From contig OX597842.1 of NCBI GenBank assembly GCA_951406725.2, forward strand, positions 15,562,001 to 15,626,000: a stretch of DNA of 64,000 nt. Reading direction: 5' to 3'. The position numbers and the translations under genes are program-made. Below the pieces are notes generated by a model. It saw only the letters and a list, made by a program, of their open reading frames with translations. It did no database searches and was not told where the DNA came from. This DNA comes from Octopus vulgaris. Its lineage: Eukaryota. Of this stretch, positions 36,501-51,500 are shown piece by piece; position 1 is the first letter of the stretch, and each line of letters opens with the position of its first letter.

Positions 36501-39500
36501 TGAACATGGTGTTGATGCTGATGATGTTGGTGGTGAAGTTTCTCTTGTCGATGATGATGAACATATAATACCGTGTGAAAGGAAAATGACGAGAGTGAAC
36601 GAAATTACAAACATGGAAATATATCGGCAATGATATACTATAAATGAAGATTGATTTAACTTACAGATACTTTAAATTGGTCAAATATTGGAAGGTTTCT
36701 GGTTGGATTTCAGTTAATTTATTCCTGTTCAAATATCTAGAACATAAAATTGAGTTAAGATGAAACTTTATGGAACAGGTTTTTGGAAGTATATAACATA
36801 TTCCAAGTAAGGAATTAAACTATGGAAATCATGAAGAGTTGATTACGGTTCTGTTGAAATTGATAATGATGATGATGATGATGTTCAAGTGGGTGCAACT
36901 AACTGCGGTTGTCTATGGTAATGAATAAAGTTGATGATGAACCTGACAATGTTGACCGCTGAGAGAAAGAATAGTGTTGGAGAGAATAGTCTCGGTAACA
37001 ATGATGGGAACGAAGAATGTTTCGGGGACCACTACCCTGGGATGATCATGAAGCAAGCAAGCGTGTGTTTGTGCACGCACGTGTGTATGTAAGCATGTGT
37101 GTATGTATGTGTTTTTCTGTATGCACGTGTGTTTTACCTCAATAGTTGAACATGAAGAACGAAGAATATTACATCTTCATAATTTATTTGTTGAAGCATT
37201 TTCTTCATATTACATTCATTGGTTAATCAGCCCAAGATTTCAGCAGGATGCTAAAAATTATCTGCCCGGATTTCAAATCCCTATTCCATTACCTTACATA
37301 TATGTGTGTGTGTGGCTGTGTGTATATATGTATGTATATGCATATGTATATTTGAGGGGATACACAAAAGTAACCGTAAATGTTCTCTGTAAGACAAACC
37401 CGATGTAGTTCAGGTTTCCGTCGCAAAACTCCACTTGATGCGACTGTCAGGCATCGGTCAGCCAACCGGCGTTATCGGGGGGTGTTGTACTGCCGCGTAG
37501 TTCGTCTTTGTTTTGACGTGTTTCTGCTCAGTTCGTATGATTTTTGCAATGGCTGGAACGAAGGAACATTGTGCTTCTGTGAAATTCTCTTTACTGCTGC
37601 TAAAAACTGCAGATGAAACAATTTTAATGCATCTCATCACAAGGATGATGCAATGGGCAAAGCACAAGTTTATGACTGGTTTTCACGATTTAGGAATGGT
37701 CACTTGTCGCTTGAAAACCAGCCTCACTCATGACAACCGTCGACCACCAAACATCATGAAAATTTATGATCTGATCTTAAAAGACCATCACCGAGCGATT
37801 GATGAACTTGTTGACATGTAAGGTTTGTCCTGGAGCTCCTGCCAGTGAAGTTTGTGCGAGGAATTGTGAATAAAAAGCGTTCCAGCAAAATCTGTGCCTC
37901 GTTTGCTCACGGAATGTCAAAAACAGTCACGGCTGAATGCGTGTTGTGAGCTAAAGGAACGGTTATGATGTAATCCGAAAGTTTTTTCGAAGGTCATTAC
38001 TGGTGACGAAAGATGGTACTACGGAATTTGAAGATGTTGAAGTGAGGAAAGAAATCGATGGGGGCGTTAAAAAGCATCACTTTGGAATAGGTCCAACACC
38101 GATTCCAGTAGCTGAAAAGGCGACTGGAACGATGCATTGATTAAAATGGAGAATACTTTGAACACAATAAAAATGTAAATATGTAAAACTAAGTGAATAA
38201 TATAATATTTCAAAATTACGGGTTTTTTTGGGCACCTCCTCGTATGTATGTACACACAAGCGGCTAACACCGAGCTTCCCTGGGATTTTTAATACCTAAA
38301 ATAGATAATATCTCATCATTTCCTTATATTTTACGTAAACTGTTGTTTAAAAGATGCCAAGATGCTGAAAATCTTCAGCTTGTCTGTGAATGTTAATTCA
38401 CTGAGAATTGTAAATACACAGAACATAAGAAAATACTAAAATACACTTTACTTTTATATTTATATTTTCTGTGGTAAATGTTTTTATAACATACGCTACA
38501 CATTTTAAAAATATCTTTAAAGTAATTGCTTTTCTAACAAGTAAACTTTTATAATGACTAACATAGTGCTTGAAGTAGACAATGTTCTTATTTTGTTCTT
38601 GGTTGCAGACAAGGGGTGAAGATCTCACATTTGATATTTAGGATGTCGGCTTGCAAGCTAAGACTTCATAGTTTTTATCTTACGAATATGGCTTATTGTA
38701 CTCTGTACCTTATATATCTTCACCTTTGCAACTATACTCCAGATAGAAGGTGTTCTACACCCACCACCCTTTAATTACTAGATTTATTCTGATTGTGAAA
38801 TGATGTTAGGCTTGCTAATCATCATCTTGTAGGGAGGATTTGATAATTCTGTTGTTATCACTTTTCATTAGTCAATTGATTTTGTCTTTATTGGTCATTT
38901 CGTTATACCTAGTTTTATTACACCTTCATGCTATTATATATTTATTATGGCCATATCGTTATATGTCATCACTAATTACAATAATAATTATATATAACTG
39001 ATGCTACCGATTCACATATTAACGATTATTTAGAGCTCAGGCATTCAAAGCTGATATTATTTCTGTGTAATTGCATTTTTGTAATGATGAGTTTTCAGGT
39101 TGGCGCTGTAAATTATTCTTTTGAATGATGGGCCATATTTCGGGCCACAACTGATTTTTCGCTTTGGTTATCCCCGCAAGAATCGATGCCAGATGGAGAA
39201 ATAATTATAGTTATAAGTCATTTGCATTATTCGGTAGCTTCATAACATCTATGTTAGCTAAGTCTAAAAGCGTTAGCGGTAATACATTTCGGAAACTACA
39301 TAGAAGTCCCTTTGTCTAGCTTCGGATCATTGTCACCATTGACCAATGAATGACGTTTTCACTGAGACTACACCGCTGTCATATTGTTTCCGACGGCTTC
39401 GCCTGTAACCGTAGATTGAGTGGAAGATGGGTGATATGCTGAGCCAAAGAGCAGCTGTGTTTGCGCCAACAAAATATTTACTCATTTGACATAATCCTTA

Positions 39501-48500: not shown

Positions 48501-51500
48501 GTAGTTCTAAATGTACAAATGCCATCGGTATTGAAGCATGTTAATTAGCGTAAACACCAGACATAATATCCATACCGAATGATAGACACGGGTGAATAGG
48601 GATTTGTATGTTTATAGTGATGATGAACATGGTGTTGATGCTGATGATGTTGGTGGTGAAATTTCTCTTGTCGATGATGATGAACATATAATACCGTGTG
48701 AAAGGAAAATGACGAGAGTGAACGAAATTACAAACATGGAAATATATCGGCAATGATATACTATAAATGAAGATTGATTTAACTTACAGAAAATATAAAT
48801 TGGTCAAATATTGGAAGGTTTCTGGTTGGATTTCAGTTAATTTATTCATGCACAAATATCTGGAACATAAAATTGAGTTAAGATGAAACTTTATGGAACA
48901 GGTTTTTGGAAGTATATAACATATTCCAAGTAAGGAATTAAACTATGGAAATCATGAAGAGTTGATTACGGTTCTGTTGAAATTGATAATGATGATGATG
49001 TTCAAGTGTGTGTAACTAACTGCGGTTGTCTATGGTAATGAATAAAGTTGATGATGAACCTGACAATGTTGACGGCTGAGAGAAAGAATAGTGTTGCGGA
49101 GAATAGTCTCGGTAATGATGATGGGAACGAAGAACGTTTCGGCAACCACTACCCTGGGATGATCATGAAGCAAGCAAGCGTGTGTTTATGCACACACGTG
49201 TGTATGTAAGCATGTGTGTATGTATGTGTGTTTCTGTATGCGCGTGTGTGTTAACTCAATAGTTGAACATGAAGTACGAAGAATATTACATCTTCATAAT
49301 TTATTTGTTGAGGCATTTTCTTCATATTACATTCATTGGTTAATCTGCCCAAGATTTCCTCAGGATGGTAAAAAGTATCTGCTCGGATTTCAAATCCCTA
49401 TTCCATTACGTTACATATGTGTGTGTGTGTGGCTCTGTATATATATGTATGTATATGCATATGTATATACGAGGGGATATACAACCGTCGACCTCCGAAA
49501 CATCATGAAAATTCTTGATCTGATCGTGGAGGACCGTCGCCGACAATTGATGAACTTGTTGACATGTCGGTTTTGTCCTGGAGCTCCTGCCAATGAATTT
49601 TGTGTGAGGAATTGTGAATGAAAAGCGTTCCAGCAAAATCCATGCCTCGTTTGCTCACGGAATGTCAAAAACAGTCATGGCTGAATGCGTGTCGTGAGCA
49701 AGAAGAACAGCTATGAGGTAATCCGAATGTTTTTTCGAAGGTCATCACTTGTGGCGAAAGCTGGTGCTACGGAATTTGAAGATGTTGAAGTGAGGAAAGA
49801 AAACGATGGGGGCGTAAAAAAGCATCACTTCGGAATAGGTCCATCACTGATTCCAGTAGCTGAAAAGGCGCCTGAACGATGCATTGATTAAAATGGAGAA
49901 TACTTTGAACACAATAAAAGTGTAAATATGTAACATTAAGTGAATAATATAATATTTCAAAATTACGGTTTCTTTTGGGCACTCCGTCGTAAGTATGTAC
50001 ACACAAGCGGCTAAGACCGAGCTTCCCTGGAATTATTAATACCTAAAATAGATATCATCTCATCATTTCCTGATATTTTGTGTAAACCGTTGTTTAAAAG
50101 ATGCCAAGATGCCGAAAATCCTCAGTTTGTAAATGTTAATTCACTGAGAATTGTAAATACACAGAACATAAGAAAAAACTAAAATACACTTTACTTTTAT
50201 ATTTATATTTTCTGTGGTAAAGGTTTTTATAACGTACGCTACACATTTTCAAAATATCTTTAAAGTAATTGTTTTTCTAACAAGTAAATTTTACTATGAC
50301 TAACGTAGTGCTTGAAGTATACAATGTTCTTATTTTGCCCTTGGTTGCAGACAAGGAATGAAGATCTCACATTTGATAATTAGGATGTCGGTTGGCAAGC
50401 TAATACTTCATAGTTTTTATCTTACAGAATATGGCTTATTGTACACGGTACCTTATATATCTACGCCTTTGCAACTATACTCCACATAACAAGAAAAAGA
50501 AGAAGAAGAAGAAGAAGAAGAAGAAGAAGAAGAAGAAGAAGAAGAAGAAGAAGAAGAAGAAGAAGAAGAAGAAGAAGAAGAAAAAGAAGAAAAGAAGAAG
50601 AAGAAAAAGAAGAAAAAAATATTTTTAATAATAATAATATTTTGGGCCACAACCGATTGTGCCCTTTGTTTATCCCCGCAAGGATCGATGCCAGATGAAG
50701 AAATAATTATAGTTATAAGTCATTTGCATTATTCGGTAGCTTCGTAAAATCTATGTTAGCTAAGTCTAAAAGCGTTAGCGGTAATACACTTCGGAAACTA
50801 CATAGAAGCCCCTTTGTCTAACTTCGGATCATTGACACCATTGGTCAAGGAATGACTTTCTCACTGAGACTACAGCGATGTCATATTGTTTCCCACGGCT
50901 TCGCCTGTAACCCTAGATTGAATGGAAGATGGGTGATACGCTGAGCCAAAGGGCAGCTGTGTTTGCGCCAACAAAGTATTCCCTTATTTGACGTAATCCC
51001 TATATTTAAAGGCTGTTCCATTGTCCACCGCCTGGTAACCTACCGAATAGTAGATACTCACACAAGATTTACTCATTCACACACACATTCATAGCCATCC
51101 TTAAATTGCGAGTCGAGCGAGTATGTCTTGGCAACATATCTAATGCTTTTACTAATTGCTTCAGGTGCCTAAGTATTTCGAGTAGGCATAGATACGCTTT
51201 TATATCTCCAACCCTAACCCTAACCCAGCTGTCGCATCCAATACTTTACTGGTACACATTTACAGCTGAGTAGACTGGATCATTCCTGATCAACGTCCCA
51301 AACACCGAGCTTAGTTCAAGAACTGAACCAATCACATTATGATCGTGCAGCGACATGCTAATCACTGTATCATATCTTTCACACACACTGAGGTACTACA
51401 AGTAGAAACTGATACCAACAGCTCAAATGCAGCCCAAAACAATTTTCCCTTCTCATCAACAAGTTACTGGATCCACGCTCAAATCACATCCTGTGTTATG

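Follow-up and report, generated by a model that had tools for sequence, protein, structure and literature searches.

Do the leucine-rich repeats (LRRs) encoded in a 64,000-nt stretch of Octopus vulgaris DNA change under selection on their binding face, and to what kind of gene do they belong? The stretch, hereafter the window, is C29:15562001-15626000, and C29 numbering is used for sequence beyond it. It contains three minus-strand exons of 72 nt bounded by AG and GT, named here by their lowest coordinate (36665, 42617 and 48788; Table 1), and further exons of the same kind are 59328, 24393 and 23254. Every exon codes for a single LRR of 24 residues, and a phase-2 intron interrupts a Leu codon. 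The reading that we favor, with a probability of roughly 0.6, is that these exons are single-repeat cassettes of a gene derived from an adhesion G protein-coupled receptor (GPCR), whose exposed face is diversifying to bind changing, probably non-self, ligands.

The initial annotation had compared the three exons by hand, and our recount agreed: exon 36665 differs from exon 48788 at 6 of 72 nt and from exon 42617 at 14 of 72 nt. Exons 42617 and 48788 differ at 15 of 72 nt. The four spliced beta-strand segments (LESLYLCMN, LYFLNLAYN, LNYLYLNRN and LKYLYLSYY) also read as it had given them. Between exons 36665 and 48788 the changes lie at exon nt 8, 9, 12, 65, 67 and 69; as annotated, all are nonsynonymous (N>C, R>M, K>Y and Y>F) and at concave-face x positions of the LxxLxLxxN motif. 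The x positions make up five codons, i.e., 15 of the 72 nt, and the hypergeometric probability of finding all six changes inside them is 3.2e-5.

A second argument, that exons outpace their introns, survived only in part. Over the 240 nt next to the donor, the units are indeed alike, although the 3-4 differences claimed were slightly too many (2, 3 and 3 on recount); over the acceptor-side 240 nt, the three unit pairs differ at 4, 12 and 11 positions. The donor flank is the best-conserved stretch of the unit, and divergence is greater farther from the donor. In alignments of whole units, differences occupy 427 of 5814 sites, 305 of 4194 and 280 of 4197, or 6.7-7.3% with the exon and low-complexity tracts counted in. 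Exons thus outpace introns when set against the donor flank, and pairs involving exon 42617 (19-21%) alone surpass the unit average, but exons 36665 and 48788, at 8.3%, do not, so that whole-exon divergence is average for this pair. The comparison with the nearest intron is a weak argument, and for exons 36665 and 48788 the equality of exon and unit-wide divergence is an outcome that the annotation had itself named as adverse. We dropped the whole exon versus intron as a test of selection, because its outcome hinges on the choice of intron stretch. What is non-random is the placement of changes within the exon. An assembly or haplotype artefact was ruled out by the ~7% unit divergence with indels and by the presence in other runs of a stop in the first transmembrane (TM1) exon, described below.

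Selection was assessed in 890,596 bases around matches on C29, C9, C10 and C26. This sample held 151 LRR-exon matches, of which 121 were kept; those dropped were without splice sites or in-frame length (25), weak (3) or at edges (2). Matching by 120-nt flank identity, with each exon used once, gave 46 pairs from 92 exons. At x codons, the proportion of nonsynonymous sites that differ (pN) was 0.303 (158.7/524), and that of synonymous sites (pS) was 0.050 (8.3/166). pN was 0.017 at consensus codons and 0.057 at the others, with an overall pS of 0.053 and a flank divergence of 0.032. Since pairing on flanks biases the flank figure low, overall pS was taken as the fair baseline, and pN at x was 5.7 times this value (bootstrap 3.8-9.1). 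When ratios were calculated per site, the five x codons ranked top (5.9, 5.7, 7.3, 3.1 and 6.4), the next codon reaching 2.1. Among x codons with a single difference, 49 were nonsynonymous and 2 synonymous (neutral P 0.005-0.0004), and x differences were spread 76/63/28 over the three codon positions. The seven pairs lying within this gene gave 23/80.5 nonsynonymous differences at x versus 8.5/284 at non-x codons.

A pairwise maximum-likelihood codon model estimated omega (dN/dS) at 9.8 for x codons, 0.25 for consensus codons and 1.07 elsewhere, with a likelihood-ratio statistic of 149 against omega = 1; when multi-base steps were allowed, the values were 11.0, 0.30 and 1.23, with a statistic of 110. 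The P values of these models are rough, because distances were fitted pair by pair and the copies are linked by conversion. A deaminase-like mutation spectrum was looked for at the x codons of the 46 pairs, and none was seen: C<>T changes make up 8% of the 167 x differences versus 31% of the 342 flank differences, all among germline copies. Together, these results leave us with little doubt that the face codons are under diversifying selection, with about six times more amino-acid than silent change and the scaffold kept. The annotation's central proposal was thereby borne out, as was its expectation that dN/dS at x would exceed 1 with more copies.

In LRRs, the x residues face outward on the concave sheet. 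A structural model of paralog P0030 had confidence mostly above 90 over its LRRs and was unreliable outside them (predicted local confidence, pLDDT, <50 at residues 367-474). Its beta-strands consist of an exon's last residue, the split Leu and the next exon's first residue (x-Leu-x), and so straddle the intron position, as had been proposed. Since each strand is assembled from two exons, any gain, loss or skipping of an exon would give a new strand. The best fold matches of the LRR model were LRRTM2 and the LGR4/5 ectodomains, and the best-matching solved relatives of P0030's seven-transmembrane (7TM) region were ADGRG6 and ADGRG2.

We then asked what gene carries the array. Mapping paralog proteins on 264 kb and joining exons at splice sites gave a predicted open frame, not a sequenced transcript, of 34 exons and 1137 residues over ~172 kb, with AG/GT at all splice sites and no internal stop or frameshift. 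It runs from a signal peptide and LRR-cap exon through 22 LRR exons, a C-cap, two cysteine-rich exons, a HormR-like (hormone-receptor) domain, GAIN and GPS to TM1. All 22 LRR exons (22/22) are 72 nt long and of phase 2, and skipping any of them would keep the frame. The C-cap exon is presumed to be such from its cysteine pattern, and we take the cysteine-rich domain to be Ly6/three-finger-like. Window positions 1001-1255 are 100% identical to P0001 (labeled Octopus vulgaris, PF26588), whose relatives are annotated ADGRG6-like, and all four GAIN exons are in frame. Just beyond the window, GPS was matched by PF01825 (E 5.3e-16, 59.3 bits, cut-off 22.5) and retains the H-L-T cleavage triad. The GAIN and GPS exons exclude a TLR, LGR or Slit identity. 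Judged by these domains, the gene derives from an octopus-expanded adhesion GPCR. The public gene model P0001 begins in an intronic repeat at 28805-28915, without any LRR exon; since it omits these exons, such arrays may be under-reported.

The gene lacks the complete 7TM domain that paralogs such as P0030 possess and is predicted not to be a signaling member. Relative to intact paralogs, its TM1 exon carries 12-nt and 1-nt deletions that lead to a stop after ~20 hydrophobic residues, 19 nt ahead of the exon end (C29:15553446-15553548), and no TM2-7 exons were found downstream up to the next gene. A 15-nt micro-exon in the GPS-TM1 introns was considered and not found; the extra bases are part of the intact paralogs' TM1 exon. 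The truncation is common to three genes, i.e., this one and those at 14.93 Mb and 13.46 Mb. The last of these (C29:13453800-13469000) has a GAIN domain ~66% identical to the query paralog proteins and a tail ~95% identical to this gene's DNA, which suggests that the tail was transferred.

Runs X14-X17 are RNA by our guess, and their contigs mix paralogs. An X16 contig spans the TM1 stop with 0 differences. X15 contigs (organism B) join GPS to TM1 and continue past the TM1 exon end into sequences whose positions lie ~6 kb downstream when mapped onto the three truncated genes; one such sequence is the usual last exon. The last LRR exon is covered by many contigs from X14, X15 and X17, whose unaligned ends look like spliced LRR and cap exons of paralogs; none of the contigs over that exon joins exon 24393 to exon 23254, a gap that is uninformative. 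The LRR family and the truncated type thus appear to be transcribed, while no spliced contig among those examined is specific to this gene. In mammals, junction-dependent decay follows a 50-nt rule. By that rule, decay would spare a transcript in which the TM1 exon, with its stop only 19 nt from the end, is joined directly to the last exon. We consider it likely that this copy still makes protein.

How the arrays grow and exchange parts was examined among the copies. The arrays grow as exon-plus-intron units of 0.4-6 kb are copied in tandem, and LRR arrays differ strongly between paralogs whose tails are 96% identical. At C29:15678819-15692380 and 15941670-15952978, LRR exons that are identical or nearly so follow one another in units of 0.9-2.4 kb; these are very recent amplifications that have yet to diversify. 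Some individual exons are mosaic: at C9:114391358, for instance, a class B donor flank adjoins a class A exon, and the exon at C9:114150069 has a hybrid core. Distances in the upstream flanks show no correlation with those in the downstream flanks (rho 0.03, 105 pairs). Recombination among LRR exon copies is likely from these mosaic exons, though the formal tests given below fell short of significance. The 5' variable blocks comprise 87 kinds in 121 exons, five of them common to different flank classes; since blocks are mostly unique, copying from a small donor pool is disfavored within the sample. Upstream of class B exon 59328, the intron (window 61194-63076) shares 91% identity with the one that precedes the exon in class A units, a further sign of mosaic units. 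The donor-side consensus of the 121 LRR exons (window 36645-36664), GTAAGTTGAATCA, is 75-99% conserved to +13, and several positions to +21 exceed 85%, past the usual splice signal; this extended conservation may reflect either a splicing element or a tract of conversion.

To our knowledge, no variable recognition receptors are known in cephalopods. The cephalopod passages of a 2026 review mention none. Family counts are lower bounds: at least 54 of 62 candidates are GPS-like matches, a set that may include other adhesion GPCRs, and at least 44 of 57 match the first exon. All 25 GAIN matches with E <= 0.001 among 149 candidates are labeled Octopus. Ritschard et al. (2019; PMC6408891), in the sections cited here, described octopus-expanded, tandemly clustered GPS-bearing adhesion GPCRs with LRRs in 5 of 22 sequences and positive selection on the branch level, without selected sites. 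The same sections report expression of group 3 genes in gills, skin, suckers and the axial nerve cord. Our placement of the gene in group 3 relies on its architecture and on 65-74% identity to proteins of O. bimaculoides rather than on a tree. One-LRR exons, long variable arrays and 7TM-less copies are not described there for group 3, although the supplements may list LRR-bearing genes and the selected branches (PMC6408891). Our literature searches, outside of which most subscription journals fell, turned up the family itself in print but no report of selection at individual sites or of truncated forms in it.

We propose that tandem copying of exon units would lengthen and renew the LRR solenoid, that selected point changes would then alter the x residues while the scaffold is retained, and that ectopic exchange between copies would reassort exon halves and flanks. 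Full-length paralogs would signal upon binding, whereas this copy would be a non-signaling ectodomain, either anchored through its 20-residue hydrophobic tail or released once the GPS is cleaved, and would serve alongside them as a decoy, opsonin or co-receptor. That the ligand is non-self seems to us somewhat better than an even bet. A number of results weigh against this proposal. As many as 53 of the 104 differing x codons change two or three bases, more than point mutation easily yields, and third positions are somewhat raised at x (28/230 vs 31/506). Non-x codons, at omega 1.07-1.23, are near neutral, and the non-LRR exons show 41 nonsynonymous and 9 synonymous differences in 540 codons against the closest paralog; constraint is therefore weak. 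A PHI-like recombination test on 15 class A exons was not significant (P 0.055), and flank incompatibility (0.34) was within the no-recombination null (mean 0.29, 95% 0.42) for 12 of these 15, three having been left out for large indels or other-class flanks. The spliced GPS-TM1 joint of X15 matches the 13.46-Mb paralog, not this gene. Two cysteines are lost in exon 10385-10568 of this copy; we take both to be partners of one disulfide in a three-finger fold, and on that topology the paired loss would suggest compensation in a protein that was still made then.

The expression data also suit a neural role, since group 3/4 expression in O. bimaculoides is highest in the axial nerve cord (PMC6408891, sections cited above). 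The variable face could instead serve arm neurons and suckers as a code for self-recognition or wiring, akin to protocadherins or Dscam, that diversifies against cross-binding between paralogs rather than to track microbes. The octopus-specific groups peak in axial nerve cord, suckers and skin of that species, and a function alongside protocadherins has been suggested for them (PMC6408891, same sections); the best LRR fold match, LRRTM2, is a synaptic adhesion protein, though the fold is generic. However, an omega near 10 between copies only ~3-5% diverged, the 25 of 151 exon matches without usable splice sites or in-frame length, and the very different arrays of paralogs with near-identical tails suggest continuing turnover rather than a stable code. 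Group 3 genes are also expressed in the gill of C. minor (PMC6408891, as far as these sections go). Overall, we regard a wiring code as unlikely, though it is the main rival.

That this copy is a decaying pseudogene, its x variation inherited or converted from working paralogs, would fit the TM1 frameshift and stop, the loss of TM2-7, the missing cysteines, the near-neutral change of the non-LRR exons and the lack, in the contigs examined, of a spliced contig specific to this gene. Yet the 1137 codons remain open throughout their 34 exons and 172 kb, the truncation is shared with two other genes, including one with a divergent ectodomain at 13.46 Mb, transcripts of the truncated type occur in X15 (RNA by guess), the excess at x persists in pairs within this gene, and the lost cysteines would be disulfide partners; we consider decay improbable. 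Divergence at exon ends might also be raised without any selection, either by hypermutation acting locally or by conversion from distant exons over short tracts. Multi-base codon changes and mosaic exons are compatible with this, and at the first base of the exon, which is four-fold degenerate, 0.109 of pairs differ, versus a pS of 0.053. But silent change at x is not elevated, invariant Leu and Asn codons sit amid the variable ones, C-to-T changes are not in excess, the variable blocks are mostly unique in the sample and the signal persists in the multi-hit model, which makes an origin without selection very improbable indeed.

Table 1. Features of the gene and its repeat units, in window coordinates unless C29 is given.
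Feature	Position	Strand	Basis
Tandem unit, ~6 kb, with exon 36665	34121..40056		self-blast, divergence
Tandem unit, ~6 kb, with exon 42617	40057..46019		self-blast, divergence
Tandem unit with exon 48788, internal deletions; homology resumes ~58045, past an inserted retroelement	46020..52481		self-blast, divergence
Donor-side intron, unusually similar among units (3-6/300 nt vs ~7% unit-wide)	36365..36664	-	alignment
Signal-peptide exon and 16 further LRR exons	C29:15633119-15726042	-	gene model
LRR exon 17/22, class B scaffold	59328..59399	-	splice sites, gene model
LRR exon 18/22 (exon 3 of the initial annotation)	48788..48859	-	splice sites, gene model
LRR exon 19/22 (exon 2 of the initial annotation)	42617..42688	-	splice sites, gene model
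LRR exon 20/22 (exon 1 of the initial annotation)	36665..36736	-	LRR_8 E 1.1e-4, under curated cut-off for one repeat
Degenerate LRR-like exon, donor present, acceptor absent	25022..25093	-	weak match, E 0.0085
LRR exon 21/22, weaker donor GTCAGC	24393..24464	-	splice sites, gene model
LRR exon 22/22 (last)	23254..23325	-	paralogous RNA-like contigs end at exon boundaries
LRR C-terminal cap exon (presumed)	16420..16589	-	gene model
Cysteine-rich domain exon 1	13395..13486	-	gene model
Cysteine-rich domain exon 2; C>Y and C>G vs closest paralog	10385..10568	-	paralog alignment
HormR-like domain exon 1	5963..6077	-	PF02793 listed for paralog P0009
HormR-like domain exon 2	2545..2714	-	gene model
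GAIN domain exon 1	1002..1233	-	100% identity to P0001 (PF26588)
GAIN domain exon 2	329..500	-	gene model
GAIN exons 3-4, GPS, broken TM1 exon	C29:15557771-15553446, just beyond window	-	gene model

Mobile elements and repeats also occur in and near the array. The retroelement at window positions 53287-56415 (minus strand), in the intron between two LRR exons, has open reading frames (ORFs) of 289 and 753 aa, presumably an endonuclease and a reverse transcriptase of RTE-like type, and tandem repeats of 159 and 174 bp lie on either side of it (52763-53157 and 57049-57643). An ORF of 187 aa at 63080-63640 contains a zinc knuckle (PF00098, E 3.3e-5) and is probably transposon-derived. Just downstream of the truncated gene, C29:15540922-15544238 contains helicase-type ORFs that we assume to be Helitron-like.

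If the cassette reading is right, it bears on whether a diversified receptor repertoire serves octopus skin, gill or arm, and named residues, exons and paralogs are now available for ligand screens and long-read tests. A far-reaching extension would be an octopus variable-receptor system, with dozens of adhesion-GPCR genes carrying arms-race LRR cassettes, 7TM-less antibody-like binders anchored or shed, and a repertoire multiplied inside one animal by exon skipping or somatic exchange, with a fresh binding strand arising at every new junction; we hold this to be a long shot.

Among known systems, the adhesion GPCRs ADGRA2/3 (GPR124/125) are conserved low-copy genes with an Ig domain and the order LRR, hormone-receptor domain, GAIN, 7TM. 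The octopus gene family shares this domain order, and PF26588 is labeled ADGRA2/3 GAIN; unlike them, it has a cysteine-rich domain, a variable number of LRRs and, in P0030, a 7TM region that best matches ADGRG6 and ADGRG2. Onto such an adhesion GPCR scaffold it would bring the binding-surface design of algal ROCO proteins and lamprey VLRs (variable lymphocyte receptors), with omega near 10 on five positions per repeat. According to the parts of two papers used here (PMC3341825, PMC11378527), brown algal ROCO genes have one LRR per 72-nt phase-2 exon, inactivated intronic exons, birth-and-death clusters, positively selected concave-face sites and documented alternative splicing. The octopus gene matches them in having one LRR per 72-nt same-phase exon (22/22) and diversifying selection on concave sites, and inactivated exons and birth-and-death clusters are likewise common to both; in contrast to the cytoplasmic ROC-COR GTPases of the algae, however, its array would be extracellular on a GAIN/GPS stalk, with GAIN and GPS exons downstream instead. 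With the VLRs of jawless fish, as portrayed in the portions cited of PMC10199209 and PMC13428168, it shares 24-residue LRR modules, a variable concave face and a hydrophobic C-terminal tail, possibly an anchor signal. Whereas VLRs are assembled somatically by deaminase-dependent conversion, filling an incomplete gene from unspliced flanking cassettes, the octopus modules are germline exons, spliceable and without C-to-T bias, in a frame already complete in the germline. On this comparison, the octopus array would work like ROCO and resemble VLR surfaces, and belongs to neither.

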